Of a stretch of DNA of 64,000 nt, positions 565-56,610 are shown one piece after another. Source of the DNA: an uncultured bacterium. GTDB lineage: Bacteria; Patescibacteriota; Minisyncoccia; Phycocordibacterales; Phycocordibacteraceae. Both the position numbers and the translations under genes were made by a program. The notes under the pieces were generated by a model. That model searched no databases, was not told the DNA's origin, and saw only the letters and a program-made list of their open reading frames with translations. Where the stretch lies: the NCBI GenBank assembly GCA_947085505.1, contig CAMTWI010000004.1, positions 65,800 to 129,799 of the forward strand. The letters run 5' to 3'. The number at the start of each line of letters is the position of its first letter. Position 1 is the stretch's first letter.

Positions 565-1809
565 ATGAAATCAGACGGAGCATACGATGTAATTGTCGTT
601 GGAGGAGGCGCAGCCGGCATGATGGCTGCGGGTGTCGCTGCATCAAACGGCAAGCGTGTCCTTCTTATTGAAAAGAACCGAAAGCTTGGCGAGAAGCTTT
701 CTATAACAGGCGGGGGACGCTGCAACATTGCTAACGCAGAAGAAGACGAGCGGAAACTTCTTTCTCATTTCGGTTCTGCAGCGAATTTTTTGCATTCTCC
801 GTTTTCGCAGTTCGGTGTTGCAGAGACCTTTAAATTCTTCGAATCAATCGGCGTCCCTACGGTTGTTGAGGCGAGAAATCGCGCGTTCCCCTGGTCTAAG
901 AGTGCGCCCGAGGTAACGGCTGCGATGTTCAAGTACGTAAAGGCTCAGGGAGTTGATATTAAGGTTGGTCTTCCAGTTGCGCGCGTGCAGGCAAGTAATG
1001 GAAAGATCAGCCATGTACTCATGGGTGGGAAGGAGTACACCGCTGATTCCTATATATTCGCCACAGGCGGCGTCTCGCATCCAGAGACCGGTTCAACAGG
1101 AGACGGATTCCGTTGGCTCACTGAACTTGGTCATTCGGTTGAGAACCCGACTCCAACGATTGTACCGCTTCGAGTTAAGGAAGCATGGGTTAAGTCCCTT
1201 GCCGGGATCACGATTAAGGACATGAAGATGACCGTCTTTGTGGACGGAACCAAAAAGCAGGTACTGAAAGGGGACGTGCTCCTCACGCACTTCGGCATTT
1301 CAGGACCCTTGATATTGAACGCAGCCGGAAAGATCGCTGACCTCATGCAAGAAGGAGAAGTAACGGCACATATTGATACCTATCCACTCAAAGATCTCGG
1401 CATACTTGATAAGCACATTGCGAGCGTATTCAACGAGCACAAGAACAAGGAGCTGCAGAATGTATTCCGTTCTATCGCGCCTGTAGGCACTAGTGATGCG
1501 CTCCTGTCGCTCGTTCCTAATATAGACCGAGACAAGCGCGTCCATAGCGTAACCAAGGAAGAGCGCCGAAGACTCGCTGAACTACTCAAGGCACTCTCGC
1601 TCACCATCACTGGTCTTATGGGACTTGATCGAGCTGTTGTTGCTGACGGCGGTGTCGCACTTACTGAAATTGATACGAAGACCATGCGGTCTAAGGTGTG
1701 TGAAAATCTTTTCGTTGTTGGCGATCTTCTAAATATTAAGCGGCCGACGGGCGGGTACTCGTTGCAGCTTTGCTGGACGACGGGGTATGTGGCGGGAAAG
1801 AATGCGTAG
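565..1809 (+). CDS. HI0933/BaiN-type FAD-dependent oxidoreductase
   Basis: ORF track gives 508-1809. The internal ATG at 565 places the Rossmann motif DVIVVGGGAAGMMAAG at the N-terminus. GGGRCN, FATGG, FGISGP and the C-terminal VGDLLN..TGGY motifs fit the HI0933-like flavoprotein family. Confidence 0.8.
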   Translation: MKSDGAYDVIVVGGGAAGMMAAGVAASNGKRVLLIEKNRKLGEKLSITGGGRCNIANAEEDERKLLSHFGSAANFLHSPFSQFGVAETFKFFESIGVPTVVEARNRAFPWSKSAPEVTAAMFKYVKAQGVDIKVGLPVARVQASNGKISHVLMGGKEYTADSYIFATGGVSHPETGSTGDGFRWLTELGHSVENPTPTIVPLRVKEAWVKSLAGITIKDMKMTVFVDGTKKQVLKGDVLLTHFGISGPLILNAAGKIADLMQEGEVTAHIDTYPLKDLGILDKHIASVFNEHKNKELQNVFRSIAPVGTSDALLSLVPNIDRDKRVHSVTKEERRRLAELLKALSLTITGLMGLDRAVVADGGVALTEIDTKTMRSKVCENLFVVGDLLNIKRPTGGYSLQLCWTTGYVAGKNA

Positions 1810-1832
1810 TTCGATCCTTGGTCTGCCAGCAA
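1808..1832 (+). repeat. copy A of tRNA-3'-half-like intergenic motif
   Basis: AGTTCGATCCTTGGTCTGCCAGCAA. The exact 10-mer GTCTGCCAGC is at 1821-1830. The motif starts inside the TAG stop (1807-1809) of the flavoprotein gene. Confidence 0.7.
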
Positions 1833-1849
1833 ACTGATATAGTCTGCAT

Positions 1850-2278
1850 ATGAAGAAAGGAGTGGATTACATCGGCGTGACGGTTAGTTTCTTTTGCCAC
1901 GATGGTAATGGTGAGTATGTCCTAACTAAGAGAAGTACTAATTGCCGGGACGAGCATGGCCGATGGGATTTCGGTGGAGGAAGTCTAGAGCTCCACGATA
2001 CGATTGAGAACACCCTTAAGAAGGAAATTGAAGAAGAACTATGCTCCGATGTTATTTCGTATGAGTTTCTTGGATATCATGATGTGCACCGCGAGAATGA
2101 AGGATTGAAGACACACTGGATATCTTTAGATTTCAAGGTACAGGTAGACCGATCTAAGGTTCAGAACGGGGAACCACACAAGTTTGATCAAATCGAATGG
2201 TTTACGCTTGATACTCTTCCGAGCCCTCTTCACTCACAAGCACCTATAGCACTCGAGCTTTATAGGGAGCAGCTATAG
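1850..2278 (+). CDS. NUDIX hydrolase
   Basis: Nudix box GGGSLELHDTIENTLKKEIEEELC (GX5EX7[K]EXXEE). TATAGT at 1838-1843 lies 6 nt upstream of the ATG. Confidence 0.8.
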   Translation: MKKGVDYIGVTVSFFCHDGNGEYVLTKRSTNCRDEHGRWDFGGGSLELHDTIENTLKKEIEEELCSDVISYEFLGYHDVHRENEGLKTHWISLDFKVQVDRSKVQNGEPHKFDQIEWFTLDTLPSPLHSQAPIALELYREQL

Positions 2279-2334
2279 TTGCCTCGCTAAATCGACTTAT
2301 CAATACGACACAAATAGTGTAGGATAGGAAGACT

Positions 2335-3822
2335 ATGGCACCGAATGCCCCCGTAAAGCCAAGCAATGGACCGCACGAAGCGGTCCTACGCTTTGAGGAC
2401 GTTTCGTTCAATTACGGGCATAACTACCCCATTGTCGACGAGGTGAACTTCTCGTTACGGAAGGGTATGAAAGTTACACTCATGGGCCAGAACGGAGCTG
2501 GGAAGTCGACTATCTTTAAGATGATAGAAGGAACGCTCAAGCCTGAGAGCGGAAAGATACAGATTCCTCGCGGTCTCACCATCGCGCTTTCGCATCAGAC
2601 AATCATGCCTGAAGACCGCGAGCTAACGATCCGTGAGTTCTTCGAGAAGCGTTTTGCAGAGAAAGTCTATGACATCGACCCAAAGATTGATGAGGTGCTT
2701 GAGGTAGTTAACCTCCATGCGCCGCACGACCGCATCATCAAGAGTTTCTCAGGGGGCCAGCAGGCACGACTCCTCTTGGCGTCCGCACTCATCCAGGATC
2801 CGGATATTCTTCTTCTTGACGAGCCGACGAACAATCTTGATACCTCGGGTATCGAGCATCTCACAAAATTCCTCTTATCGTACGAGAAGACCGTTGTGGT
2901 TATCTCCCATGATGCGGAGTTTCTTAACACGTTCTCAAACGGCGTTCTGTATCTCGACGTGCACACGAAGAAGATAGAGCAGTACGTGGGCAACTACTAC
3001 GACCTCCTCAAGGAGATTTCAGCGCGTATCGAGCGCGAGAACCGCAAGAACGCGCAGCTCGCAAAGAAGATCCAAGACAACAAGGACAAGGCGAACTTCT
3101 TTGCACAGAAGGGAGGCAAGATGCGCGTCGTTGCGAAGAAAATGCGTGACGAGATTGAAGAGATGGAGGAAGAAAAAGTGGACGTACGCAAGGAAGATAA
3201 GACCATCCGCCCATTCGTTATTCCAGTACAGGAAGATATTCTCGGCGAGATCCTCACTATCAGTTCCCTTTCTATAATTGATCCGAAGACCCACAAGCCG
3301 AAGGAGAAGTCGGCGAACGTGGTTATGAAAAAGAAGCAACACCTTCTCTTGAAGGGGCCAAACGGTATCGGCAAAACCACGCTCCTTGAGTCTATGGCCA
3401 ACGGAAACGCTAAGGGTGCCGCCATAACTCGGGGTATCAAGGTTGGGTATTATCGCCAGGATTTCTCAACACTTAACTTCGAGCACACCGTCCGCGAGTC
3501 GCTCCTCAGTGCGATGGATAAGCCAAATGAGGAACAGATGCGCAAAGTAGCTGCAGGCTTTATCATTACCGCCGATTCAATCGGAAAGAAGATCGGTGCT
3601 TTGTCTGAGGGACAGAAGGGTCTTGTTGCGTTCGCGCGCTTAGTGCTCATGCAGCCAGGACTCCTCATTCTTGACGAGCCAACGAACCATATCAACTTCC
3701 GTCATATCCCTGTTATTGCAAAAGCGCTTGATCAATACGAAGGCGCCATGGTGCTCGTCTCGCACGTACCTGACTTCGTCGAGCAGATTAGAATTGACGA
3801 GGTACTCGATCTCGCGAAATAA
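2335..3822 (+). CDS. ABC-F family ATPase (two tandem ABC domains, no TM domain)
   Basis: The first domain has Walker [10 protein letters not shown], signature FSGGQQ and Walker [13 protein letters not shown] charged linker follows. The second domain has [15 protein letters not shown] and [11 protein letters not shown]. Confidence 0.85.
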
Positions 3823-3824
3823 AC

Positions 3825-4076
3825 ATGAAAGACGCCTGGCACATCTACATCCTCCGATGTGCCGATGGAACGCTCTATACGGGCGTTACGACCGATCTTA
3901 CGCGCCGGGTGAGTGAGCATAACGAATCCTTAAAGGGTGCGAAGTACACCCGAGTTCGCAGACCCGTGTCGCTCGTATATAGCGAAGCGTTTGAAAGCAG
4001 GAGTGCTGCATGTATGAGGGAGGCAGCGATCAAAAAGCTATCGCGAGACGAAAAATCAAAGCTTGTAGAGGGATAG
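3825..4076 (+). CDS. GIY-YIG nuclease superfamily small protein
   Basis: [29 protein letters not shown] matches the GIY..YIG/R/E/N pattern of stand-alone GIY-YIG (UPF0213-like) proteins. Confidence 0.75.
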
Positions 4077-4143
4077 TGCGAATCCCCACTTGCACGTCTC
4101 ACAAAGGGGCTACAATATCTAGGTTACCCATTTACGTATTCCT

Positions 4144-4569
4144 ATGCAGAAATTTATGACGTGCTCGTACATGGACGGCTGGCGCAATTACGCTCCAACC
4201 GTACTACGTCTCGCAACTGGTGTTATCTTCGCGCTTCATGGGCTCCAGAAGCTTGAGGGAGGTCTTCCTGCTACCGCTGGCTTCGTGGGAAGTCTCGGCT
4301 TCCCAATGCCTGAGTTCTTTGCGGTTCTCTTAATCGCGGCTGAGCTTGGTGGCGGTATCCTCCTCATTCTCGGACTCCTTACACGTTGGGCGGCAAAGGC
4401 GCTCGTGGTGGTGTCGCTTGCCGCGCTATTCCTTGTTCACCTTCAAAACGGCTTCTTTTTGGCTACGGGCGGATACGAGTTCATCTTGCTCCTCCTTGCG
4501 GCAAGCGTGTCGCTTATGCTCACGGGCGGAGGCAAGTGGTCTTTGGATCACATGCTCTGGAAGCGGTAA
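4144..4569 (+). CDS. DoxX family membrane protein
   Basis: Four predicted TM helices. RLATGVIFALHGLQKL and AAELGGGILLILGLLTR are typical of DoxX. Confidence 0.7.
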   Translation: MQKFMTCSYMDGWRNYAPTVLRLATGVIFALHGLQKLEGGLPATAGFVGSLGFPMPEFFAVLLIAAELGGGILLILGLLTRWAAKALVVVSLAALFLVHLQNGFFLATGGYEFILLLLAASVSLMLTGGGKWSLDHMLWKR

Positions 4570-4585
4570 ACACTATCCACGTATC

Positions 4586-4614
4586 CAAAAAAGGACCCAA
4601 GGGGTCCTTTTTTG
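4586..4614. terminator. bidirectional intrinsic terminator
   Basis: AAAAAAGGACCC-AAG-GGGTCCTTTTTT: a GC-rich stem flanked by an A-run and a T-run. Confidence 0.75.
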
Positions 4615-4633
4615 TTCGCTATACTAAAAGTAT

Positions 4634-5023
4634 ATGGAAACAACAGTATATCTCGCACAGCTGTTCGGACTCTTCCTTATCATTGTCGGTGCCTCGGTGC
4701 TATTCCGTAGGCAGGACTTCGTGCCGATTATTGGCGCATTCGTTGAAGAGCGTCTTACACGTATGCTCATGGGTCTACTCGAGCTAACCGCTGGTCTCAG
4801 TATTGTCCTTGCGCACAACGATTGGAGTTCCTTTGCAGCTGGCACCATAACGACAATTGGTTACCTACTTGTTATCGAAGGAACAATGTATCTTCTCCTG
4901 CCGAATAAGGCCATAGGCTGGGTGGTCCGGACCTTCAACGTGAAGGCGTGGTATTACACGGGTGGTTCGCTCTCGATTCTGCTCGGTGCGTACCTCTGTT
5001 TCTTTGGTTTCGGACTCTTATAG
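4634..5023 (+). CDS. hypothetical integral membrane protein (4 TM)
   Basis: Hydrophobic throughout; I recognise no motif. TATACT at 4620-4625 lies 8 nt upstream of the ATG. Confidence 0.6.
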   Translation: METTVYLAQLFGLFLIIVGASVLFRRQDFVPIIGAFVEERLTRMLMGLLELTAGLSIVLAHNDWSSFAAGTITTIGYLLVIEGTMYLLLPNKAIGWVVRTFNVKAWYYTGGSLSILLGAYLCFFGFGLL

Positions 5024-5025
5024 TA

Positions 5026-5337
5026 ATGGGTACCGCACTTACTGAAACTATTTATACGTTTGCACGTAAGATTCCGAAAGGAAAAGTAGCCACGTACGGT
5101 CAACTTGCGCAGCTTGCAGGGAGACCCGGTGCTGCTCGTGCGGTAGGAAGCGCAATGCGCTGTAACCCTGACATACCAAAAACACCGTGTCATCGTGTCG
5201 TTGCGTCAGACGGCTCTCTAACCGGCTATAGTGCAGGGCAAGGTATCAGCACGAAGCGAACGATGCTCCTGGATGAAGGAGTCACCTTCAAGGGAACGAA
5301 GGTGGATTTGAAAGTCTCGTTATGGAAGGGAATCTAG
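5026..5337 (+). CDS. MGMT-family protein (single C-terminal DNA-binding/alkyl-acceptor domain)
   Basis: ORF track gives 4948-5337. The ATG at 5026 removes the overlap with the upstream gene. The sequence has GKVATYGQLA, the active-site PCHRVV and the tail GxL.GY..G. It is only about 103 aa, with no N-terminal domain. Confidence 0.8.
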   Translation: MGTALTETIYTFARKIPKGKVATYGQLAQLAGRPGAARAVGSAMRCNPDIPKTPCHRVVASDGSLTGYSAGQGISTKRTMLLDEGVTFKGTKVDLKVSLWKGI

Positions 5338-6089
5338 GCGAGTCCTAAATCAGCAAGGAACTTTGCAAGTTCCTTGCCCTCGATAACACGGTATCCACCA
5401 ATCTTTGTTGCTCCAAGCTTAATACCCATGATGCTCGTGCGCTGAAGCGACTTCACCTCATTGAAGAGCGCTACAACCATACGACGAATCTGGTGTGTCT
5501 TCCCTTCGGTGAGCGTGATGCGAAAGCGATCGTCCCCAAGGATTTCGACCTTCGTAGGCTTCGTCTCGTATCCTTCAATATTTACGCCCGCTTCCATCTT
5601 CTCCTTGAATGAGGAGCGAAGTGGTTGCTTCGTGCGTACGTCGTACGTTTTCTCGTGTGCGTACTTGGGATTCAAAAGCCTATCGGTTACCCGTCCGTCG
5701 TTTGTAAGAATCAGGAGACCGCTTGAGGCCTTGTCGAGTCTCCCGACAGGGAACAAGGAAAGACGCTTAAGATCGCTAGGCAGCGTATCGAGCACGTTCT
5801 CGGTATCGGTTGCTTCGCGGTGCGTGTCCATACCTGCCGGCTTATTGAATGCGATATAGGCGTACGCCTTTGGGCGCGCCTGTCCGCGCACTTCAACCAC
5901 ATCAGTCTCCTTCACCTTGTCGCCGAGTGCCGCGAGAGAGCCGTTTATATAGACTTTCTTCTTTTCAACGAGCACGTCAGCGTCGCGCCGTGTGGCGAAG
6001 CCTTTCATGGCAAGGTACTTGTTCACTCGCATCGGGAATACGTTCTCGCTAGGTACTTCGGTGACTGGCTTCTGTACGGGCCTTTTCAT
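5334..6089 (-). CDS. RsuA/RluB-family pseudouridine synthase (S4 domain + catalytic domain)
   Basis: S4-like RVNKYLAMKGFATRRDADVLV and the catalytic GRLDKASSGLLILTNDG. ORF track extends to 6134; I prefer the ATG at 6089 (MKRPVQ), which avoids a 5' overlap with the divergent gene at 6133. Confidence 0.8.
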   Translation of the reverse strand: MKRPVQKPVTEVPSENVFPMRVNKYLAMKGFATRRDADVLVEKKKVYINGSLAALGDKVKETDVVEVRGQARPKAYAYIAFNKPAGMDTHREATDTENVLDTLPSDLKRLSLFPVGRLDKASSGLLILTNDGRVTDRLLNPKYAHEKTYDVRTKQPLRSSFKEKMEAGVNIEGYETKPTKVEILGDDRFRITLTEGKTHQIRRMVVALFNEVKSLQRTSIMGIKLGATKIGGYRVIEGKELAKFLADLGLA

Positions 6090-6132
6090 ATACGTACAGT
6101 AGCGCGTTCGGCGTGATTGGTATACTTCTTGC

Positions 6133-6360
6133 ATGGAAACAGTTACTCCAGGAATCTACTACCACTTCAAGCATCCAGATCAGCATTACAAGGTACTCGG
6201 TATCGCGTTCCATACCGAAACCGAGGAAGATGTGGTGGTGTACAAGCCACTCTATGAGACTGATAAGAAACTCTTTGTGCGCCCCCTGTCTATGTTTGTT
6301 GAGAGTGTCGACAAGCCGGAACTTGGCTACTGGGGTCCTCGATTCGTTCGAATATCGTAA
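6133..6360 (+). CDS. DUF1653-like small protein
   Basis: YYHFKHPDQHYKVLGIAFHTETEEDVVVYKPLY resembles the DUF1653 core as I recall it. Confidence 0.55.
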   Translation: METVTPGIYYHFKHPDQHYKVLGIAFHTETEEDVVVYKPLYETDKKLFVRPLSMFVESVDKPELGYWGPRFVRIS

Positions 6361-6405
6361 ATCCTATACACAGCTACACTTGCGCTTCACTATAAGCGGG
6401 CTACC

Positions 6406-6699
6406 ATGGGCGAACGGATGGATGACTTTCTCAAGATGGATATCTTCTTCGGCGTGACAACAGTCGCGGTCCTTGTTATATCCGTGCTCTTGGTGATGGT
6501 GCTCATCCGGCTCCTCAGAATTCTGAAAACGGTAGACGAAGTATCAGAGATCGTTCAGGAGGAAGCTGCGGAGATCCGGGACGACATCCGGGAGGTACGT
6601 ACTCAGGTGAAGCGAGAGGCGGTGAAGGCAGGGCAATTGCTCGGACTCTTTGCTGGATTTGTGAAGCCAAAGGCACGTCGTAAGAAGTCATCATCATAA
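6406..6699 (+). CDS. small membrane-anchored coiled-coil protein
   Basis: One TM helix (FFGVTTVAVLVISVLLVMVLI) followed by a charged helix. Confidence 0.5.
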   Translation: MGERMDDFLKMDIFFGVTTVAVLVISVLLVMVLIRLLRILKTVDEVSEIVQEEAAEIRDDIREVRTQVKREAVKAGQLLGLFAGFVKPKARRKKSSS

Positions 6700-6720
6700 T
6701 CATTTTGTAATTCAAGATCT

Positions 6721-7179
6721 ATGGCAACTAAGAAGACAGCGAAGAAAGTGAAGGGAGGAAAGAAGATGTCTAATCTCCAGAAGGCGGAGATTGGTGCAGG
6801 CATGCTTGCGGCAGTTGCTGCTGCTGGTGCCGCAACCTACTACTTCTATGGCGCAAAAGATGCAAAGAAGCACCGGAACGCAACAGCAAAGTGGGCAAAG
6901 GGTCTTAAGAACGACGTTGTCCGTGAGGCAAAGAAGCTTAAGGAGCTTGATGAGAAGGCAATGGCTGTCATCGTTGATCAGGCTGCAAAGGCATACAAGG
7001 GTCTCGATGATGTTACCCCTGGCGACCTCCGAGCTGCAGTGAATGAGCTCAAGGGCAACTGGGAGAGCGTTAAGAAGGAGTTGAAGCGCACAGTTAAGAA
7101 GACCACAAAGAAAGCAGCTCCAAAGAAGGTGGTTAAGAAAGCCGTTAAGAAGGCAGCGAAGAAGAAGTCTTCTCGCTAA
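6721..7179 (+). CDS. Lys-rich membrane-anchored protein (YtxH-like?)
   Basis: Gly/Ala TM segment GAGMLAAVAAAGAATYYFYG followed by helical KK-rich regions. The YtxH resemblance is weak. Confidence 0.45.
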   Translation: MATKKTAKKVKGGKKMSNLQKAEIGAGMLAAVAAAGAATYYFYGAKDAKKHRNATAKWAKGLKNDVVREAKKLKELDEKAMAVIVDQAAKAYKGLDDVTPGDLRAAVNELKGNWESVKKELKRTVKKTTKKAAPKKVVKKAVKKAAKKKSSR

Positions 7180-7195
7180 GCGAGACGAAAGAAAA

Positions 7196-7224
7196 GCCTC
7201 GTGACCAGAAGTCACGGGGCTTTT
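7196..7224 (+). terminator. intrinsic terminator
   Basis: GCCTCGTGAC-CAGAA-GTCACGGGGC followed by TTTTCTC. Confidence 0.75.
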
Positions 7225-7383
7225 CTCTATCCCCATGAAGACTTCATGTGCCCCTCATCATGCATCTATTAGAGTGGCCCAATGCCTATCTCTATGCGAG
7301 TATTGGAAGACCGCCGTAGGACCTCTCCTCGCATAGCCCCCAAAACCCTTGCTAAGAGTGGTCTCGGCGGTACGTCATATCTT

Positions 7384-7887
7384 ATGGACCAGGAAGAAAC
7401 AAAAGCATACTTCCTCCAGATATACGATACCTATGCGGACGATATCTACCGTTTTTGCTACCTCAAGGTTAGCAATCGGGAGCTCGCCCAGGATCTGTCT
7501 CAGGAGGTTTTCACCCGCTTCTGGCAAGCCCTGCGGGAAGGTACTGTCATGCGAAGTGAGCGAGCGCTCCTTTATACGATGGCACGGAACCTTGTTATCG
7601 ACTGGTACCGCAAGAAGAAGGAAACCTCGCTCGATGTATTAACTGAGCAAGGGCTTGAGTTTGGCGGAGACACCGCAGAGGACGTGACGCGCGAAGCCGA
7701 AATGAGTGAAGCGCTTCGGATGGTGAATGAGCTCGATGAAGCATCGCGTGAGGTACTTATTCTTCGATTTGTAGACGGCCTCTCGCCAAAGGAGATTGCT
7801 CTTCTTTCAGGAGAATCAGCAAATGCCATTTCTGTGCGCTTGAATCGGGCCATGAAGAAGATGCGCACTCGTATGCATACCGATTGA
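7384..7887 (+). CDS. ECF-type sigma-70 family RNA polymerase sigma factor
   Basis: Region 2 (DIYRFCYLKV..AQDLSQEVFTRFW) and region 4 HTH (LSPKEIALLSGESANAISVRLNRAMKKM). ORF track starts at 7282; the ATG at 7384 gives the usual ~167 aa length. Confidence 0.8.
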   Translation: MDQEETKAYFLQIYDTYADDIYRFCYLKVSNRELAQDLSQEVFTRFWQALREGTVMRSERALLYTMARNLVIDWYRKKKETSLDVLTEQGLEFGGDTAEDVTREAEMSEALRMVNELDEASREVLILRFVDGLSPKEIALLSGESANAISVRLNRAMKKMRTRMHTD

Positions 7888-9338: not shown

Positions 9339-9362
9339 GCATCTACGCCGTATACTCCTTCT

Positions 9363-10040
9363 ATGAATCGTCTCATCTTTATTCTTTTTCTCGTCGGTAT
9401 CCTCGCAATCGGTGGCGGAGCAGCGTGGTACCTCGTTAATACACGAAACGAGGCATTTGGACCGCCTATCGTTGCAACAAGCACGCCTCAGGTAGAGGAG
9501 GGTCTCGCTATCTACTCGAATGGTCCCTATGGATTCACCATCTTCTATCCGCAGGATGCAGAGGTTTTGTATACGTTTGATGCGAATTACGGCCTCTCTA
9601 GAAACTGGCGCGTGAACGCACTCCCGAATACTGAGGGTGCGCCCATCGTGTCTATAACTCCGTACCATACTGAAAGCGAGGATTCATACCCGCGCTACTT
9701 TAGCGTCATGGTACGAATTGGGGCATCAGCAGATCCGGCTGAAGTTAAACGCTGCGAAGTTGCTTCCTCATGGCAAGGAGAAACGGTACTGCCAGATGCG
9801 ATTATTGGGAACACACCATGGAAAGTCTTTGCGTTTGAGAGTGCGGGCATGATGCAGTATGTAAAGGGCGTATCCTACCGAACGATTCACGAAGGACGCT
9901 GCATTGCGCTTGAGAAGATACGAACCGGATCTAGCTACCGTGAGGCTGTATCAAGCGAGAAGGATATCTCTGAAGAGGTCCTCTTAAAAGAGTACGAGGC
10001 GCTTTCAAGTATCGTGGAGAGTTTCTCCTTTGCGCGCTAA
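9363..10040 (+). CDS. hypothetical signal-anchored protein
   Basis: N-terminal TM helix LIFILFLVGILAIGGGAAWYL. TATACT at 9351-9356 lies 6 nt upstream of the ATG. Confidence 0.5.
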   Translation: MNRLIFILFLVGILAIGGGAAWYLVNTRNEAFGPPIVATSTPQVEEGLAIYSNGPYGFTIFYPQDAEVLYTFDANYGLSRNWRVNALPNTEGAPIVSITPYHTESEDSYPRYFSVMVRIGASADPAEVKRCEVASSWQGETVLPDAIIGNTPWKVFAFESAGMMQYVKGVSYRTIHEGRCIALEKIRTGSSYREAVSSEKDISEEVLLKEYEALSSIVESFSFAR

Positions 10041-23240: not shown

Positions 23241-23266
23241 CGGTTACTGGGTGATATACTTTCCCT

Positions 23267-23644
23267 ATGTCTGACACTAAATTCATACTCGTTGTCGAGG
23301 ACGACCCAATTCTTAAGAACCTGCTTGGCCACACGTTGGCCGGGAAGTATCAAACGCTCTACGCTTCCGATGGGAACGAGGCCCTTGCCCTCCTTGAAGC
23401 GAATAAGCCAGTGCTCGTGCTGCTTGATCTCATGCTCCCAACTATGGACGGGTTTGCGGTGTTGCAGTCTATCCGTGCACGTACAGACGAGCTAAAGACC
23501 GTACCAGTTATTGTAGTCTCCAATCTTGGTGCCGAAGCGGACATTACAAAGGCAAAGACACTTGGCGCAAACGACTACCTCATCAAGGCTGAGGTGGCGG
23601 TTGAGGAGATCGTTGCAAAGATCGAAGCGATGCTCGCTGCCTAG
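23267..23644 (+). CDS. single-domain response regulator (receiver only)
   Basis: VVEDD, the phospho-acceptor LLDLMLP, VSNLG and a conserved K in DYLIKA. It is 125 aa with no output domain. TATACT at 23255-23260 lies 6 nt upstream. Confidence 0.85.
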
Positions 23645-29114: not shown

Positions 29115-29187
29115 GGGCCGTTAGCTCAGTTGGTAGAGCATCTCATTTGCAATGAGAGGGTCGCAGGTTCGAATCCTGTACGGTCCA
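29115..29187 (+). tRNA. tRNA-Ala (anticodon UGC)
   Basis: Acceptor GGGCCGT/ACGGTCC with a G3:U70 pair. D-arm AGCTCAGTTGGTAGAGC. Anticodon loop TTTGCAA. T-arm GCAGGTTCGAATCCTGT. Discriminator A; CCA is not encoded. Confidence 0.9.
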
Positions 29188-41437: not shown

Positions 41438-41455
41438 TATTGTTATACTCATTTC

Positions 41456-42061
41456 ATGATAAAAGCAGTGGTTTTTGACGCGGATGGAGTACTTATTAAT
41501 GCTGAGCGTTTTAGTCTCCAGCTTGAGCGCGAGTATGGAATTCCCGTCGATAGAGTTCTTCCGTTCTTTACGGGAGTATTTCAACAGTGCCTCGTGGGCA
41601 AGGCTAATCTGAAGGAGGTTATTGAGCCACACTTAAGCGAGTGGGGCTGGAAAGGAAGTGTCGATGAGCTTCTTACGTTTTGGTTCAAGGCTGAGCATTC
41701 AATAGACGAAGAGATGATTAGTATCGTTCAGTCTCTAAAAGGAAAGATCCATGTGTTCATGGCAACTAACCAGGAGCAGTGCCGTGTTGACTATATGACT
41801 AATGAAATGGGCTTTGGCGAAATCTTTACCAAGATCTATTCCTCTGCAGGAATCGGAGAACTCAAGATGAACTCTGAATTCTTCGCGCGAATGGTACAAG
41901 ACATACAGCAGAACTTCATCCCTGATATACAGCCTTCGGAGATACTCTTCTTTGATGACGCTCAGGAGAACATTAAAGGGGCCAATGATTTTGGTATTCA
42001 AGGGCATTTCTTCACAGGTATAGAAGATTTCAAGAAGAAGCTTGCTGAGGCTGGACTATAA
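41456..42061 (+). CDS. HAD-superfamily hydrolase
   Basis: Motif I VVFDADGVL, motif II ATNQ and motif IV FFDDAQEN. The ATG at 41456 is preceded by TATACT at 41444-49 (6-nt gap); ORF-track start 41396 runs through the repeat. Confidence 0.8.
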   Translation: MIKAVVFDADGVLINAERFSLQLEREYGIPVDRVLPFFTGVFQQCLVGKANLKEVIEPHLSEWGWKGSVDELLTFWFKAEHSIDEEMISIVQSLKGKIHVFMATNQEQCRVDYMTNEMGFGEIFTKIYSSAGIGELKMNSEFFARMVQDIQQNFIPDIQPSEILFFDDAQENIKGANDFGIQGHFFTGIEDFKKKLAEAGL

Positions 42062-42090
42062 AGGTTCCAACATCGTCCCAGACTGCCTGC
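42062..42090 (+). repeat. copy D (variant) of the intergenic motif
   Basis: AGGTTCCAACATCGTCCCAGACTGCCTGC lies directly after the HAD stop and directly before TATACT at 42091-96. It shares GTTCCAACATCGTyCCAG with copy E and CCCAGwCTGCCwGC with copy B. Confidence 0.55.
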
Positions 42091-42104
42091 TATACTTCTC
42101 GCAT

Positions 42105-42554
42105 ATGGAAATAAGCAACCTTGTAGGGCCCGTAGAAATGCAGTTTGTTATCGGTCTCGGGCTCTCTCTTATTCTTGGATACATCGTTGGTGTTGAGCGC
42201 GAAATGCGTCACAAGGACGCAGGTATAAGCACCCACATCATGGTTATTGCAGGCTCGATGCTTTTCACACTTCTCTCAAGCATTGTTGATCCTCTTTCAA
42301 CCTCACGTATTGCGTCCCAGATTGTTGTGGGTATCGGATTCCTTGGTGCCGGACTCATTCTTAAGGAAGGAGCGAGTGTTAAGAATCTCACAACCGCGGC
42401 GAGTGTCTGGTTCGCTGCTGCTATTGGTATGGCACTTGGCTTTGGGTTCTACATTATTGCGATTATCGCAGCGATTGTTATAGCGCTTGTACCGCGTATC
42501 CCAAGCCTGCATAACGACTTGCATAAGGAGACGTGCGTAAAGTGCTCGGAATAA
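42105..42554 (+). CDS. MgtC/SapB family membrane protein
   Basis: GLGLSLILGYIVGVERE...AGISTH..V..GS and GIGFLGAGLILKEG..V.NLTTAASVW..AAIGMALG. Confidence 0.8.
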   Translation: MEISNLVGPVEMQFVIGLGLSLILGYIVGVEREMRHKDAGISTHIMVIAGSMLFTLLSSIVDPLSTSRIASQIVVGIGFLGAGLILKEGASVKNLTTAASVWFAAAIGMALGFGFYIIAIIAAIVIALVPRIPSLHNDLHKETCVKCSE

Positions 42555-42584
42555 AATTGTAGAGTCGTGGTATAATCCACGAAT

Positions 42585-43562
42585 ATGGAAAACACCCCCG
42601 CTGCAGCGCCCTCGGCATCAAAGACAACTCCCCGCGACTTCTTCTTTTGGGCTGGGCTTCTTGTGGCGCTTATAGGAAGCGTCATCTCCTTTACGACGCT
42701 TCTCTTCTCCTATATAAACTTCGCGTTCCCGGATCCGCTCGCGTACTACGGCGATCCATATGGTGGTTCGGTCCGTGTTGCGATGGCGTGCGTGATCGTA
42801 TTTATCCCTACAACGCTCGTACTTGCGCACCTCATTCGCAAGACAATTATAAATGAGGCAGGGAAGGCGAACATCTGGGTTCGTCGCTGGGCACTTGGTC
42901 TCATACTCTTCGTTGCAACGCTAGCGATTCTCATTGACCTCATAACGCTCATCATGACGTTCCTTGGGGGTGAACTTTCAATTCGCTTTGGCCTTAAGGT
43001 GCTGGTAGTGCTTCTGGTTGCTGCGTTCATGTTCCTGCACTTCCTTGCAGATCTGAAGGGATATTGGATTGAGAACGCTAAGAAAGCAGGTCTTGTATCG
43101 TCTGCAGTACTCGCCATGGCACTTGTGTCAGTTGTTGCAGGGTTCTTTATCATCGGTACGCCGGGAGATATCCGCATGATGCGCTTTGACGAGCAGAAGG
43201 TGATGGATCTTCAAGGCATCCAGTACCAGGTTGTGAACTACTATCAGTTGAAAGAGGAACTCCCTGAGTCGCTTGCGCTCCTTAATGACCCAATTTCAAG
43301 CTTTATGATTCCTGTTGATCCTCAGTCAGGATCAGCGTATCACTATCGCGTAACAGGCCCGCTCTCGTTTGAGCTCTGTGCCGTGTTCAATAAGCCAACG
43401 CCTGATACGCGTGGCCAAGGAGGGTATCCAGCTCGTGATATAAGTTACCCATCACCCGGTATGGGAGTTGATGAGAATTGGCAGCACGAGGCGGGAGATA
43501 CCTGCTTTACGCGCACCATTGATCCTGAGCGCTATCCAATCTTCGAGAAGCCTCTTCGGTAG
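42585..43562 (+). CDS. multi-TM protein with C-terminal soluble domain (DUF5671-like?)
   Basis: Five to six TM helices followed by a ~140-aa C-terminal domain. The DUF5671 assignment is from memory only. Confidence 0.45.
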   Translation: MENTPAAAPSASKTTPRDFFFWAGLLVALIGSVISFTTLLFSYINFAFPDPLAYYGDPYGGSVRVAMACVIVFIPTTLVLAHLIRKTIINEAGKANIWVRRWALGLILFVATLAILIDLITLIMTFLGGELSIRFGLKVLVVLLVAAFMFLHFLADLKGYWIENAKKAGLVSSAVLAMALVSVVAGFFIIGTPGDIRMMRFDEQKVMDLQGIQYQVVNYYQLKEELPESLALLNDPISSFMIPVDPQSGSAYHYRVTGPLSFELCAVFNKPTPDTRGQGGYPARDISYPSPGMGVDENWQHEAGDTCFTRTIDPERYPIFEKPLR

Positions 43563-50086: not shown

Positions 50087-50117
50087 GAGAGAAATCAGGA
50101 TGGTATGATAGGGGTAA

Positions 50118-50951: not shown

Positions 50952-50952
50952 T

Positions 50953-51735: not shown

Positions 51736-51738
51736 CTT

Positions 51739-52404
51739 ATGGAGGTTCGAATCGAAGAGTCCTGGAAGAAAAGACTCGAAGGGGAGTTTGAAAAGCCTTA
51801 CTTCAAAGAACTCACAGAATTTGTAAAGGAAGAATACGCGGCCAGCACGGTCTATCCGCATCCAAAGAATATATTTAAGGCGTTTGAGTTAACGCCCTTT
51901 GATCAAGTTAAGGTCGTCATACTTGGGCAGGACCCGTATCATGGGCCACATCAAGCCATTGGTCTATCGTTTGCAGTTGAGGAGGGAATTCCCCTCCCGC
52001 CTTCCCTTCGCAATATTTATAAAGAGATCGAGAGCGATCTTGGGGTAAGGCCTGTAGCTGATGGCAATCTGTCCAGATGGGCAAAACAAGGAGTACTGCT
52101 TCTGAATGCGACCCTTACTGTCCGTGCCGCAAGTGCTAACTCGCATCAAGGCAAGGGATGGGAGGAATTCACCGATGCGGTTATACGCGTGCTCTCTGAA
52201 GAACGAGAGCATCTGGTCTTTATACTGTGGGGCAATTATGCGCGTACAAAGGGTGCGCATATTGATCGAGCCAAACACTTGGTTATAGAGTCTCCACACC
52301 CGTCTCCGTTCTCAGCAAGGAATGGATTCTTTGGTTCAAAACCGTTTAGCAAGACGAATGAGTATCTAAGAAAGGGAGACAAGGGAGAGATAGGTTGGTT
52401 TTGA
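51739..52404 (+). CDS. ung: uracil-DNA glycosylase (family 1)
   Basis: VVILGQDPYHGPHQAIGLSF, GVLLLNATLTV and HPSPFSA. Confidence 0.95.
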   Translation: MEVRIEESWKKRLEGEFEKPYFKELTEFVKEEYAASTVYPHPKNIFKAFELTPFDQVKVVILGQDPYHGPHQAIGLSFAVEEGIPLPPSLRNIYKEIESDLGVRPVADGNLSRWAKQGVLLLNATLTVRAASANSHQGKGWEEFTDAVIRVLSEEREHLVFILWGNYARTKGAHIDRAKHLVIESPHPSPFSARNGFFGSKPFSKTNEYLRKGDKGEIGWF

Positions 52405-52440
52405 TTTGCAGCGCTTCTTGAGCGCTGGTATCGTCTATAT

Positions 52441-54198
52441 ATGACCGTACTTAAAACCGAGTGGGACCTATCAGTTTTTTATAAGGGTGTTACTGATCCG
52501 GCTATCGAGGAAGATCAAAAAATGGCTGATAAAGCCATGGCTGCATTCGCGAAGAAGTACCGCGAAGACAAGAGGCATTTAAAGAATGCGAAAGCGCTCG
52601 CAGAAGCACTTATTGCATACGAAGCACTTATTGCTCTTCCCGCAACCCGTGCCAGCTACTATGTGTTTTACCGAAAGGATCTCAATATAGAAGACAAGGA
52701 GGCTGAGGCACTCGCGGCACGTCTTGAGGAGCGAGGCACACGACGAGGCAACCAGATTCTTTTCTTTACGCTCGAACTCGGAAAGATCTCTCAGGAGAAG
52801 CAGCGTGAATTCTTGAAGGCACTTGTGCTCGCACCATTCAAGTACTGGCTCGAGCAAGTATTCGAAAATGCTCGCTACGATCTCTCAGAGGCCGAAGAAA
52901 AAATACTATCCCTGAAGGAGGATGTATCACATGGACGATGGGTGCAGCTAACGGATAATGTGCTCAACAAGAAGACCGTGGAGTTTAACGACAAGATGCT
53001 CCCGCTTCCAGAAGCAGTTGGCATCCTGGCGAACCAGCCGACGGCAAAGCGTCGGAAGCTTGGCGCACTCCTTAACGAGGCGTACGAAAGTGTTGCGGAT
53101 GTCGCAGAAGGAGAAATCAATGCCATCTACACTGACAAGAAGATCGAAGACGAGCTTCGCGGTATGAAAGAACCTTACGAGGCAACAATCCGCGGCTACC
53201 AGAACGATGTGAAGAGTGTGCTCGCACTCGTAGAGGCGGTTGAGAAGAGTAAGAAGATAGCCCACCGTTTCTATGAGGCTAAGCGGAAGCTTTTGAAGCT
53301 CGACCACCTCACGTATGCTGATCGTAGTGCCTCTATAGGCGAACTAAAGACCAAGATGCCGTTCGAGAAGGCCGTGCCTATCGTCCGGGAGGTCTTTGAG
53401 GAGCTCGATCCTGTGTATGCTCGTATCTTTGACCGCCTCATCGCAAGCGGCCAGGTAGATGTGCACCCAAAGAAAGGTAAAGCAGGAGGCGCGTACTGTG
53501 CATCGGGTCCTGGTGTCCCGACATTCGTTCTTCTTAATCACACTGACACGTTTGATTCAGTGAAAACACTTGCACATGAGATGGGACATGCAGTACACGC
53601 AGAGCGCTCCAAGGACCAGCGCCCGTTGTATGAAGGGCATCCGATTTCAACTGCAGAGACTGCAAGCACCTTCTTCGAGTACGCTGCACTAAAGCGCCTC
53701 GTTGCAAACCTTCCTAAGGAAGAACGCATCATCGCACTACATAATGTCATCCAGGACGATATTAGCACCGTCTTCCGGCAGATTGCCTGCTTTAGCTTCG
53801 AGCGCTCGCTTCACGCACTCATACGTAAGGAAGGTTATGTACCCAAGGAGCGTATCGCGGATCTCATGAACGAGCATATGCAGTCTTATCTCGGTCCTGC
53901 ATTCAAGCTCACGCGTGGCGACGGGTACTTCTTTGTTAACTGGAGCCACATACGCCGATTCTTCTATGTGTACTCGTATGCGTACGGACAGCTCATTAGT
54001 AAGGGTCTGCATGCAAAGCTCGAAAAGGATCCCTCATTCATCAGAAAAGTGGATGGTTTCCTATCAGCGGGAGAAAGCATGTCTCCGGAAGACATCTTCA
54101 AGAAATGCGGCTTGAATACCAAGAAGCCTGACATTTTCCTTGAGGGATTGAAGTCGATAGAGCGTGATGTGGCGCAGCTCGAGCGCCTTATCAAATAA
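52441..54198 (+). CDS. pepF: M3B oligoendopeptidase F family
   Basis: Zinc motif HEMGHAVH with a downstream E in ISTAETASTFFE. The length and N-terminal helical domain are typical. Confidence 0.8.
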   Translation: MTVLKTEWDLSVFYKGVTDPAIEEDQKMADKAMAAFAKKYREDKRHLKNAKALAEALIAYEALIALPATRASYYVFYRKDLNIEDKEAEALAARLEERGTRRGNQILFFTLELGKISQEKQREFLKALVLAPFKYWLEQVFENARYDLSEAEEKILSLKEDVSHGRWVQLTDNVLNKKTVEFNDKMLPLPEAVGILANQPTAKRRKLGALLNEAYESVADVAEGEINAIYTDKKIEDELRGMKEPYEATIRGYQNDVKSVLALVEAVEKSKKIAHRFYEAKRKLLKLDHLTYADRSASIGELKTKMPFEKAVPIVREVFEELDPVYARIFDRLIASGQVDVHPKKGKAGGAYCASGPGVPTFVLLNHTDTFDSVKTLAHEMGHAVHAERSKDQRPLYEGHPISTAETASTFFEYAALKRLVANLPKEERIIALHNVIQDDISTVFRQIACFSFERSLHALIRKEGYVPKERIADLMNEHMQSYLGPAFKLTRGDGYFFVNWSHIRRFFYVYSYAYGQLISKGLHAKLEKDPSFIRKVDGFLSAGESMSPEDIFKKCGLNTKKPDIFLEGLKSIERDVAQLERLIK

Positions 54199-54216
54199 TG
54201 GTATCGTCATACCACT

Positions 54217-56133
54217 ATGACTGTATCTGAAGTCCGTAAGCGATTCCTCGCATTCTATGAGGCTCGGGGGCATGTGATTATCCCATCGGCTCCCATTGTG
54301 CCCGGCAATGATCCAACAACCCTCTTCACTTCGAGCGGGATGCAGCCCCTGCTCCCGTACTTCCTTGGAAAGGATCATCCGGAAGGAAAGCGCGTTGTGA
54401 ACTCGCAGCTCGCGTTTCGTGCGGGAGACATTGAGGAAGTTGGAGACAATCGTCATACGACATTCTTTGAGATGCTTGGGAACTGGTCTTTCGGTGACTA
54501 TTTCAAACAGGAACAACTTCCTTGGATATTTGAGTTCCTTACGAGTACCGAGACGGGGTTTGGTATTGATCCAAATAAGCTCTACGTAACCGTATTTGCA
54601 GAGGACAAAGAAGCAGGTATCGCACTTGATACGGAAGCGGTAGAACTTTGGAAGCGTCTCTTTAAAGAAAAGGGGGTCGATGCTGAGTTCTCTAACATTG
54701 GAAGCGAAGCTGACGGGTACCTAAAGGGCATGGGTCCAAAGGACCGGATATTTGCCTACGATGCAAAGAAGAACTGGTGGAGCCGTTCAGGGGTGCCAAG
54801 CAACATGCCAGCAGGCGAGCCGGGGGGGCCAGACTCAGAGATTTTCTACGACTTCGGCACACCACATGATCCAAAATGGGGCACACACTGCCATCCAAAC
54901 TGCGATTGCGGGCGATTTGTTGAGATTGGGAACTCGGTATTCATGCAGTTTGTTAAGAAAGAGGATGGTTCCTTTCAGGAGCTTCCAAAGAAGAATATCG
55001 ATTTTGGTGGAGGCCTTGAGCGCATAACGATGGCAACGGTTGGGCCGGACATCTTTATGCTTGATATCTTTGACGCCGCCCGTGCGGTTGTTGAGGAGCG
55101 CTCTGGAAAGAAGTACGGTGAAGACGAGGCAACAACGCGGGCATTCCGCATCATTCTTGATCACATGCGTGCAAGTGCGTTCATGCTTGCTGAAGGAATC
55201 CTGCCTTCAAACACAGAGGCTGGCTATGTGCTTCGCAGACTTTTGCGCCGTGCAATACGTGAATCAGATCGCCTTGGTATCAAGGATGCGGTACTTGCTG
55301 ACGTAGCAAAAGGCTACGCTCAGGTCTATGCGGACCAATACCCACACGTGCTCGCAAACGCAGGGAAGATTGAAGAGGAGATTGCGAAAGAGGAAGAGAA
55401 ATTCCGTAAAACCCTTACGAGCGGCATGCGCGAGCTTGAGAAGTTAGTAGCAAAGGGCACTGTTACTCCAGAGGATGTGTTTACCCTATTTACGTCCTAT
55501 GGCTTCCCTGTTGAGCTAACCGAAGAGATCGCAAACGAACGCGAGATTGAGATAGATCTCGCTGGCGTGCTTGAGCTTATGAAGAAGCATCAGGAGACCT
55601 CAAGGGCAGGAGGAGCGCAGCGCTTTGCGGGCGGGCTCGCAGACCATGCTGAGCAGACGGTCCGGTATCACACCACGCACCACATTCTCCTTAAGGCACT
55701 TCAGATGGTGCTGGGTTCTGAGGTTAAACAGCGCGGTTCAAACATTACGTCTGAGCGCCTTCGCATAGACTTCGCATCTCCTGGCAAGATGACGGACGAA
55801 CAGAAGGCTGAGGTTGAGAAGATTGTGAACGAGGTTGTATACCAAGATCTTCCTGTTACGCGCACGGTTATGGCACGCGAAGAGGCAGAGAAGCTCGGTG
55901 CAGAGATGGAGTTCGGGGTTAAGTATCCAGACATGGTGTCGGTGTATTCCGTTGGTCCAATACACGCAACGGAAGAGACACCGGATATTCCTAATGCGTT
56001 CTCCCTTGAGTTCTGTGGCGGCCCCCATGTAACGAATACGAGCGAGATACATGCAGACGGACGGAAGTTCCGTATTCAGAAAGAAGAGGCTGTTGCGAGC
56101 GGCGTGCGTAGGATTAAGGGGGTGTTGGAGTAG
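54217..56133 (+). CDS. alaS: alanyl-tRNA synthetase, short form (no C-Ala domain)
   Basis: FLAFYEARGH, FTSSGMQ, RHTTFFEMLGNWSFGDYFK, editing-domain HTTHHIL and CGGPHV. It ends at ...GVRRIKGVLE (638 aa). Confidence 0.9.
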   Translation: MTVSEVRKRFLAFYEARGHVIIPSAPIVPGNDPTTLFTSSGMQPLLPYFLGKDHPEGKRVVNSQLAFRAGDIEEVGDNRHTTFFEMLGNWSFGDYFKQEQLPWIFEFLTSTETGFGIDPNKLYVTVFAEDKEAGIALDTEAVELWKRLFKEKGVDAEFSNIGSEADGYLKGMGPKDRIFAYDAKKNWWSRSGVPSNMPAGEPGGPDSEIFYDFGTPHDPKWGTHCHPNCDCGRFVEIGNSVFMQFVKKEDGSFQELPKKNIDFGGGLERITMATVGPDIFMLDIFDAARAVVEERSGKKYGEDEATTRAFRIILDHMRASAFMLAEGILPSNTEAGYVLRRLLRRAIRESDRLGIKDAVLADVAKGYAQVYADQYPHVLANAGKIEEEIAKEEEKFRKTLTSGMRELEKLVAKGTVTPEDVFTLFTSYGFPVELTEEIANEREIEIDLAGVLELMKKHQETSRAGGAQRFAGGLADHAEQTVRYHTTHHILLKALQMVLGSEVKQRGSNITSERLRIDFASPGKMTDEQKAEVEKIVNEVVYQDLPVTRTVMAREEAEKLGAEMEFGVKYPDMVSVYSVGPIHATEETPDIPNAFSLEFCGGPHVTNTSEIHADGRKFRIQKEEAVASGVRRIKGVLE

Positions 56134-56156
56134 GTTTGATACCTAGTCTGCCAGCT
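56132..56156 (+). repeat. copy C of tRNA-3'-half-like intergenic motif
   Basis: AGGTTTGATACCTAGTCTGCCAGCT. It starts inside the TAG stop of alaS (56131-33). GTCTGCCAGC is at 56146-56155, followed by TATAAA. Confidence 0.7.
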
Positions 56157-56167
56157 ATAAACAAAAG

Positions 56168-56203
56168 CCGCCCAACATAGGTCAGGTGACCTTTGTTGAG
56201 CGG
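56168..56203. terminator. long hairpin between convergent genes
   Basis: CCGCCCAACA...TGTTGAGCGG forms the outer stem (one mismatch), with an inner AGGT/ACCT stem. It lies between alaS (+) and the zinc-ribbon gene (-). Confidence 0.55.
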
Positions 56204-56208
56204 TGAAA

Positions 56209-56517
56209 TTAACCCATGGCAATTCCAAGAAGAAGTCCGGTGGCGAACACAGGGTTTGTGTCGGCTTCTTCGGCCAAAGCCTCCAGCTCTTTGTGGTCGA
56301 GCCAGACGCCGTTGCATGTGGGGCAGCGGTCGACAAGCAACCTTCCGTTTTGAAGCGGAACCTTCTGCATCGCAGATTGATCGTCAGGGCAGATTCGCTG
56401 CGGCTCCGGTTTGGTTTCGCACGCGGTACAAACCGGCTGGCCGGAAGCGTTCTTCCATTGTGTCTTCACTTCTCGACACTTTGAGCATGTAAGGCTTTCG
56501 CCATAGCAACTGGACAT
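56209..56517 (-). CDS. zinc-ribbon protein (zf-TFIIB-type C-terminal domain)
   Basis: CSKC...CTAC, then CPDD...CPTCNGVWLDHKELEAL (the CPxCxGxWLDxxEL pattern), then a short hydrophobic tail. SD GGAG lies 8 nt upstream. Confidence 0.65.
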   Translation of the reverse strand: MSSCYGESLTCSKCREVKTQWKNASGQPVCTACETKPEPQRICPDDQSAMQKVPLQNGRLLVDRCPTCNGVWLDHKELEALAEEADTNPVFATGLLLGIAMG

Positions 56518-56550
56518 ATTGTTGACTCCGAAAGAAGTTTGTCTGACGCT

Positions 56551-56579
56551 ATATTAGCATTAATAAATACGTTTGTCAA
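56551..56579 (-). promoter_or_regulatory. sigma-70-like promoter TTGACA-N17-TAATAT
   Basis: Minus-strand reading: TTGACA (56579-56574), a 17-nt spacer, then TAATAT (56556-56551). It lies about 35 nt upstream of start 56517. Confidence 0.55.
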
Positions 56580-56587
56580 GCAAGAAA

Positions 56588-56610
56588 GTTCCAACATCGT
56601 TCCAGTCCCC
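56588..56610 (+). repeat. copy E (variant) of the intergenic motif
   Basis: GTTCCAACATCGTTCCAGTCCCC shares 18 of 19 nt with copy D (GTTCCAACATCGTCCCAGAC). Confidence 0.5.

Follow-up and report, generated by a model that had tools for sequence, protein, structure and literature searches.

Short tRNA-Gln-like sites as probable boundaries of mobile single-gene cassettes in a Patescibacteria genome

A stretch of 64,000 nt from an uncultured Patescibacteriota bacterium (GenBank assembly GCA_947085505.1, contig CAMTWI010000004.1, positions 65,800 to 129,799 of the forward strand; called the window below) contains five copies, A to E, of a short intergenic motif that partly resembles the 3′ half of a tRNA. 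These copies are very probably DNA-level boundaries of mobile accessory gene cassettes in this Paceibacteria-like genome of the Candidate Phyla Radiation (CPR), and not punctuation marks in mRNA. A large serine recombinase (LSR) is, with somewhat less confidence, the probable enzyme responsible, and the best-supported origin of the sites is from the attB and attP arms of a serine-recombinase element that targets tRNA-Gln. CPR bacteria are epibionts or symbionts with tiny genomes, and the ways in which they acquire and exchange accessory genes are poorly understood. The genome of the window is compact, with its genes mostly on the + strand, and its closest relatives are metagenome-assembled genomes of Patescibacteria/Paceibacteria type.

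Copies in the Window and Their Two Forms

A preliminary description of the window, made from its sequence, had located five copies. Re-reading the window confirmed their positions and sequences, all on the + strand, and they are given here with the form to which each belongs.

1807-1834, +: copy A, short form (attB-type), TAGTTCGATCCTTGGTCTGCCAGCAAAC; the TAG in it serves an HI0933-like flavoprotein gene (508-1809) as stop codon
41411-41439, +: copy B, short form, GAGGTTCGATCCCCAGTCTGCCAGCAATA
42061-42092, +: copy D, long form (attP-type), AAAGGTTCCAACATCGTCCCAGACTGCCTGC; its 3′ end is the extended -10 (TGC-TATACT) of mgtC
56132-56159, +: copy C, short form, TAGGTTTGATACCTAGTCTGCCAGCTATA; its TAG is the alaS stop codon
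56585-56616, +: copy E, long form with a degenerate 3′ part, GAAAGTTCCAACATCGTTCCAGTCCCCCACAA

The 10-mer GTCTGCCAGC, common to A, B and C, occurs exactly three times in the window, always on the + strand (at 1821, 41426 and 56146), against an expectation of about 0.12 (2 x 64000 / 4^10), in keeping with the earlier estimate of less than one. With one mismatch it occurs five times versus 4.96 expected, which is unremarkable, and the weight of the observation therefore lies on the exact copies and on the similarity over the surrounding 23-28 nt. The 18-mer GTTCCAACATCGTYCCAG, common to D and E, is present twice, where 0.08 would be expected even with three mismatches. An nhmmer profile of the whole family found exactly these five copies and no further one in the window.

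The two forms were defined by aligning nine copies from 66 kb of this genome. A, B and C have the short form TAGGTTCGATCCCTAGTCTGCCAGCAATA, which can be written with a split as (T)AGGTTCGAT-CCCYAGTCTGCCAGCAATA. D and E have the long form AAAGGTTCCAACATCGTCCCAGAC-NN-CCAGCAA, as do three more long copies, ending in ...CCAGCAA, on Logan contig L005, which reaches 1.7 kb to the left of the window. Since the L005 copies link the two forms, short and long form make up one family, and the kinship of D and E with A to C that had been suggested from the window holds through these copies. The parts common to both forms are AGGTTC on the 5′ side and CCAG-C-NN-CCAGCAA on the 3′ side; the likeness to a T-loop is therefore confined to the short form, which holds the T-loop string and usually keeps four of the five T-stem pairs. 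The cassette site is 33 nt long. No fold is predicted for the long form, both strands giving energies of 0 to -0.3 kcal/mol that do not surpass those of shuffled sequences, and the fold and repeat check revealed no inverted repeat or palindrome in the motif. As a separate observation, copy D (42061-42096) ends in CCTGC and not in CCAGCAA, and thereby supplies the TG of the extended -10 of mgtC, so that site and promoter overlap.

The preliminary description preferred to see the motif as a tRNA-mimic processing signal at the RNA level that frees leaderless mRNAs. On such a reading, tRNA-processing enzymes would cut the transcribed motif at the end of an mRNA and thereby set its 3′ end. The T-loop string and T-stem pairs of the short form would suit this, as would the abutting of the motif on the stops of co-oriented conserved genes and the TG-n-TATAnT box with a leaderless ATG that comes after each of A, B and D. 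A and C start within the TAG stops of the flavoprotein gene and of alaS (54217-56133), D directly follows the TAA stop of a HAD-hydrolase gene, and B lies 40 nt past the ychF stop. However, no copy has a 5′ acceptor strand or a cloverleaf, as had already been remarked, and none overlaps a tRNA (ARAGORN) or an Rfam match (gathering threshold); the window's tRNA genes are limited to two for tRNA-Ala, at 29115 and 31860 (ARAGORN, Rfam), and no other Rfam family is present. Moreover, the long form, which is the commoner one, has no predicted structure at all, roughly one in two of the flanking cassette genes runs antisense to the motif, and the copies coincide with boundaries of DNA presence and absence and with the ends of recombinase elements, as described below. 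Because of this independence of gene orientation, the unfolded long form, the absence of Rfam and tRNA matches and the DNA-level boundaries, RNA processing is an unsupported explanation and an extremely unlikely one.

Occupied and Empty Junctions

All three places at which copies lie in the window carry accessory genes.

1835-2278, +: accessory NUDIX gene (Pfam) behind A, with ATG at 1850, TATAGT box at 1838-1843 and no long form on its right
41440-42060, +: HAD-hydrolase cassette (Pfam) flanked by B (left) and D (right); a promoter of its own, TGTTATACT, serves gene 41456-42061
42105-42554, +: distal accessory gene of the MgtC family (Pfam), with no site on its right
56160-56584, -: Zn-ribbon cassette between C and E; 102-aa gene (56209-56517) with its own TTGACA/TAATAT promoter and terminator
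56617-56914, -: terminator hairpin and distal accessory 84-aa gene (56660-56914)

The Zn-ribbon gene is antisense to the sites C and E that bracket it. In the near-identical strain L002 (NCBI GCA_030695235.1), about 300 extra bp are found between B and the HAD promoter, and this segment consists of a small antisense open reading frame (ORF), a terminator and, at its right end, a long form. In five related species (L040-L044), the backbone is ychF-DUF5671-leuS, HAD and mgtC being absent, and the gap between ychF and DUF5671 holds other genes or nothing; in L041 the junction is empty. The flavoprotein gene is directly followed by the ABC-F gene in L225, with neither a site nor the NUDIX gene in between, which identifies the NUDIX gene of the window as an insertion. 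Similarly, alaS is directly followed in L127 by a homologue of the window gene 58228-59517. A homologue (64% identical) of the 84-aa gene lies directly behind a long form in another hotspot, upstream of DUF5671, in L186. The L002 insert, the empty junctions of the relatives and the antisense Zn-ribbon cassette together indicate that the three window sites are insertion hotspots, in which the motif marks internal boundaries regardless of gene orientation. No copies were detected by nhmmer in 80 GTDB loci around ychF, which served as empty-site controls only.

Arrays in Metagenomes

Metagenomes were scanned with the long core, at least one exact-match copy being required per locus, and at least 120 loci (537 kb) were recovered, in which the nhmmer profile found at least 334 copies. 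All counts for array loci in this and the following sections are among the matches listed. The preliminary description held that equal occurrence on both strands would speak against a function; none of the 94 multi-copy loci mixes strands. Copies follow one another at a median distance of 530 bp (interquartile range, 395-658 bp), and each interval typically contains a single ORF that covers a median of 76% of it. Cassette ORFs lie on the motif strand in 111 cases and on the other strand in 98, so that orientation of the gene is independent of that of the site. They are also extremely diverse: 209 ORFs fall into 201 blastp clusters. NUDIX is the commonest Pfam family (4 of 150 cassette ORFs), followed by HAD (2), and alpha/beta hydrolases, GNAT, isochorismatase, lysozyme, deformylase and others occur as well, the majority of ORFs having no family match. 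Long forms also appeared to lie inside ORFs in 76 of 264 cases; this figure is inflated by maximal six-frame ORF calling and was not used.

Where a short form is present, it precedes all long forms in 44 of 46 loci, and one of the two exceptions is the window itself, which holds several separate arrays. The long core is conserved by more than 90% at about 20 positions in 250 distinct copies from many environments, part of which is a selection effect, because the scan demanded at least one exact-match copy per locus.

A short, intergenic and highly repeated element that lies just upstream of the -10 boxes at A, B and D could also be a selfish repeat, of the kind of repetitive extragenic palindromic (REP) sequences or miniature inverted-repeat transposable elements (MITEs), or a protein-binding promoter or insulator, which would spread by itself and at which deletions by homologous recombination would be secondary. 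Yet the motif lacks the inverted repeats or palindrome of REP and MITE elements, keeps a strict polarity within each locus, has one form at the head of arrays and the other behind it, and has tRNA-Gln and the ends of LSR elements as its anchor points. The distance between the motif and the -10 box varies, in line with the earlier remark that the motif is not a fixed -35 element, and the terminator of an antisense gene is often what comes next. A self-spreading repeat or a regulatory site is hence very improbable.

tRNA-Gln Origin and Landing Pads

tRNA-Gln accounts for 22 of the 26 tRNAs in array loci. These genes are co-oriented with the motif and stand first in the array, at its 5′ head, no copy preceding them. 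In sequence, the short form is the part of tRNA-Gln made up of the 3′ strands of T-stem and acceptor and of G73, after which comes CA. The comparison with the 3′ ends of true tRNA genes that the preliminary description had proposed, made here on related contigs, thus yielded a match: the short form corresponds to the 3′ part of a real tRNA, co-oriented with it and flanking inserted DNA. No integrase was found adjoining tRNA-Gln, the genes upstream being those for DnaX and a metalloprotease-like protein.

Arrays are also found at five or more non-tRNA positions of the backbone. In relatives (60-95% amino acid identity), the short form sits on the stop codons of YchF, flavoprotein, AlaS, ABC-F and a UDG-like gene, with long forms after it, and its TAG or TAA is usually the stop codon of the host gene itself. 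It is located at the flavoprotein stop in L143 and L218, which are syntenic with A, and at the ychF stop in L212, L231 and L163; in L161 and L192, it lies at the stop of alaS.

An unusual T-loop (CTAGG ATCGTAC CCTAG) occurs in some of the tRNA-Gln genes that head arrays (L175 8-122, L126 11-123, L128 996-1150), and a displaced canonical 3′ fragment comes 15 nt further on. In L120 (7773-7945), a 58-nt partial duplicate of tRNA-Gln is found 42 nt after the gene and is followed by the first 15 nt of the left end of an LSR element, which has the appearance of a scar.

Large Serine Recombinase Elements with the Same Ends

A tblastn search revealed LSR genes in six array loci; in each, the gene lies to the 5′ side of the array and runs antisense to the motif. 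The order in L175 is tRNA-Gln, short form, LSR, rolling-circle Rep, XRE repressor, cargo and six long forms, the Pfam domains being Resolvase, Recombinase and Zn_ribbon_recom for the LSR and REP_ORF2-G2P for Rep. L126 comes from the sample of L175 and matches it in tRNA and short form, but has small cassettes where L175 has the LSR element. As an independent test set, six loci were picked by LSR homology alone (49-69% identity). In all six, the 3′ end of the LSR gene overlaps tRNA-Gln or a short form (tRNA-Lys in L244), and a long-form arm is located 3.7-5 kb away, with arrays of up to 16 copies (L240) behind it. A recombinase gene stands beside one att site in L175, L240-L244 and L246, and most cassettes have none.

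In the short form, AGGTTC is separated from the core by 9 nt in L244 and by 12 nt, counted to NN, in the tRNA-Gln sites; the corresponding distances in the long form are 14 and 17 nt, an increase of 5 nt. This is the shift that distinguishes attP from attB in serine integrases, where the motif for the zinc-ribbon domain (ZD) is 5 bp closer to the crossover in attB than in attP (PMC3783163).

In L175 (98-125), and near 11447-11472 in L240, L241 and L243, the LSR ORF ends within the attachment site: the tRNA or short-form arm supplies its last three codons and its stop (..ML(G/R)D*), the TAG being the CTA of the T-stem. Because the site encodes the end of the ORF, integration and excision must alter the C-terminus of the LSR, a change that might act as an integration-dependent switch. 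In L244 (7701-7720 and 11449-11522), an LSR homologue of 52% identity is found at tRNA-Lys(TTT) instead of tRNA-Gln; its distal arm is unchanged (GTTCCAACATCGTCCCA) but its core is that of the tRNA-Lys acceptor. Comparison with the tRNA-Gln elements suggests that targets may be switched by a change of the core alone. The LSR element of L243 carries at 6129-7549 a SMODS and SLATT gene pair, which is CBASS-like defence cargo. A tblastn search with XerD gave a single Xer-like gene in the 537 kb of array loci. This sole Xer-type tyrosine recombinase gene (L210, 5388-6471) ends 15 nt past the last long form of its array; it was considered as the array recombinase and judged a probable housekeeping coincidence.

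The preliminary description had offered relic att sites of tRNA-targeting elements as an alternative. The att part of this stands, the short form being the 3′ end of tRNA-Gln and recombinase elements having the same ends. On the relic part, the copies would be inert scars, decaying attL and attR remnants of prophages or integrative plasmids that were once located at tRNA-Gln, with no cassette system behind them. LSR-Rep elements are indeed integrated there, and partial tRNA duplications and element-end scars do exist, as in L120. The relic part fails, however, on the high conservation of the sites, although it is partly a selection effect, and on arrays of up to 16 copies that bound single-gene cassettes without an integrase. 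Intervals are 300-800 bp long with one intact ORF each and no integrase debris, strain-level indels occur, the same cassette is found in differing contexts, and non-tRNA backbone positions carry arrays too. Inert scars are therefore an improbable explanation. All of the rival explanations fare poorly beside that of the sites as boundaries of mobile cassettes.

Exchange within the Core and a Proposed Mechanism

Pairs of loci that share only the left cassette (L183/L223, L122/L221) are identical up to CCCAGAC and then diverge, and pairs that share only the right cassette (L223/L229, L124/L176) keep the 3′ part. A right cassette that has a long form before it in L172 recurs in L199 with a short form before it, and one short form heads different cassettes in L199 and L224. 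As the pairs break between CCCAGAC and CCAGC, exchange occurs within AC-NN-CCAGC, and in it short and long forms can stand in for each other. Sharing of cassettes between loci is very rare, which limits this mapping to about eight informative pairs. In the L244 element at tRNA-Lys, attL and attR share exactly the 9-nt AGGGCGGAC, which is the acceptor 3′ strand; the core thus mimics an acceptor strand, and NN corresponds to its variable positions. The main values of NN are TG, AG, GG, AC and CC, and they are correlated within arrays: adjacent long forms have the same NN in 55% of cases versus 19% expected. CG or GC is found in 3 of 189 sites versus about 27 expected from the marginal frequencies.

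These features can be accommodated in the following mechanism. The short form would be the chromosomal, attB-type arm at the head of an array, either the real end of tRNA-Gln or a copy of it on the stop of a conserved gene, and the long form would be the element-side, attP-type arm that closes each cassette. Their common core, (A/T)C-NN-CCAGCA, would mimic the acceptor strand of tRNA-Gln, and the exchange would take place inside it. Insertion of a circular cassette into the short form would give the order short form, cassette, long form, and a usable short form would be re-created, because the sequence to the right of the core contains almost no recognition information. Stacking would follow from this re-created short form: cassettes could accumulate as in integrons, and recombination between a short and a long form could remove them. 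The likely catalyst would be the LSR of the LSR-Rep-XRE elements of about 4-7 kb that have the same two ends, with the small cassettes as non-autonomous passengers. We infer both the regeneration of attB and a continued activity of the process. A wider proposal, that CPR bacteria possess an LSR-based analogue of the integron, in which a cassette has one attP-type half-site plus core and attB-type pads are regenerated so that stacking and shuffling across several loci are unlimited, is tentative and deserves slightly more doubt than trust.

Several observations weigh against this explanation of the sites. First, NN differs between the left and the right junction in all five LSR elements examined and also between the B and D′ sites of L002. 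The sharing of NN by adjacent long forms and the avoidance of the palindromic CG and GC speak for NN as the crossover dinucleotide of a serine recombinase, which should be common to both ends; with 0 of 5 elements matching, NN was rejected as such, and positions 68-69 of the mimicked tRNA-Gln acceptor strand are the better reading of it. Second, canonical serine-integrase sites consist of two related half-sites. In the present sites only the left half-site is recognizable: there is no dyad symmetry and no inverted copy of the left arm, and nothing is conserved to the right of CCAGCAATA. Third, a long form opens 39 loci even though 600 nt or more of sequence lie upstream of it, and detection of terminal repeats revealed no circular cassette contig. 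Fourth, relatives with an empty site keep the stop at the same codon but without the short form, and the mechanism does not account for the exact placing of a tRNA-Gln 3′ fragment on the stop codons of unrelated genes. Finally, only one clear strain-level indel involves the window, no recombinase gene was found in the window by tblastn, and no copies were found by nhmmer in the 10-20 kb examined from the close GTDB relatives L040-L044.

Relation to Known Systems

The arrays resemble integrons in having one array-initial site and many cassette-terminal sites in a single orientation, in their cassettes of about 0.5 kb with a single ORF, extremely diverse and mostly of unassigned function, and in that insertion at the head site appears to regenerate this site. 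They differ in that no IntI adjoins the head site, the associated recombinase being an LSR, and in that the cassette site is unstructured whereas attC is a folded hairpin. Furthermore, the present cassettes have their own promoters and ORFs in either orientation, and the head site is either the tRNA-Gln 3′ end itself or its copy at the stop of a gene, with several arrays per genome. Lacking both IntI and the attC fold, the system does not belong to the integron family.

Staphylococcal cassette chromosome (SCC) elements are moved by the Ccr large serine recombinases and integrate at the 3′ end of rlmH/orfX. Composite SCC islands include ccr-less pseudo-SCC elements bounded by direct repeats, with modules of 3-60 kb. 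The arrays share with them, on this description, LSR-linked insertion at the extreme 3′ end of a conserved gene and tandem modules, some without a recombinase, with direct att repeats between them. Here, in contrast, the modules are single genes, the target is derived from tRNA-Gln (with ychF, alaS and other stops in addition) and the host belongs to the CPR.

Tycheposons and tRNA-linked genomic islands of Prochlorococcus offer a further parallel. Tycheposons are multi-gene elements, 910 of 937 of which have a tyrosine recombinase, and some use large serine recombinases and carry replication genes (bioRxiv 10.1101/2020.12.28.424599). A streamlined host, integration at tRNA genes, partial tRNA repeats and the pushing of older elements deeper into the island are common to both systems (bioRxiv 10.1101/2020.12.28.424599). 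The present system differs in its hundreds of integrase-less single-gene units, in a conserved, dedicated arm that is not derived from tRNA (the long form) and in its landing pads at the stops of protein genes. With the att sites of serine integrases (A118/LI, Bxb1, phiC31), the sites have in common an LSR gene beside the site, a short common core and a P-type arm whose AGGTTC lies 5 bp farther from the crossover than in the B-type arm (PMC3783163). They differ in the single left half-site without dyad symmetry and in that the product sites resemble the substrates, whereas canonical attL and attR are inert without a recombination directionality factor (RDF).

No description of the motif or of the system was found in the literature searched, the coverage of which was incomplete, and the arrays are probably a new example of a site-specific cassette platform. 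The finding bears on the plasticity of CPR genomes and on recombinase biology. If the interpretation as cassette boundaries is true, it would explain hypervariable spots in otherwise syntenic CPR genomes, provide a second, mechanistically independent answer to the problem that integrons solve, and add a serine recombinase family with short, tRNA-derived and apparently re-usable targets, which would be of interest for genome engineering. The motif can also be used as a probe to recover CPR accessory genes from metagenomes.

Additional Observations

The long core also matches 34 viral contigs (IMG/VR, L006-L039). All belong to one conserved phage gene for a cytosine-C5 methyltransferase, coding ...VWDDVGTFDGRPW..., and were set aside as coincidence; the short-form pattern has no match in the viral contigs. 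The viral match comprises 23 nt identical to the long-form core, AGGTTCCAACATCGTCCCAGACA, the antisense strand of which codes ..VWDDVGTF.. in the 34 contigs. In the reading frame of this match, the LSR ORF of an excised circle would run on through the long-form arm.

Most genes of the window appear to be leaderless: without a Shine-Dalgarno sequence, they have a TG-n-TATAnT extended -10 at 6-9 nt before the ATG, as seen at 9340-9365, 23245-23270, 42560-42587 and 56975-57002.

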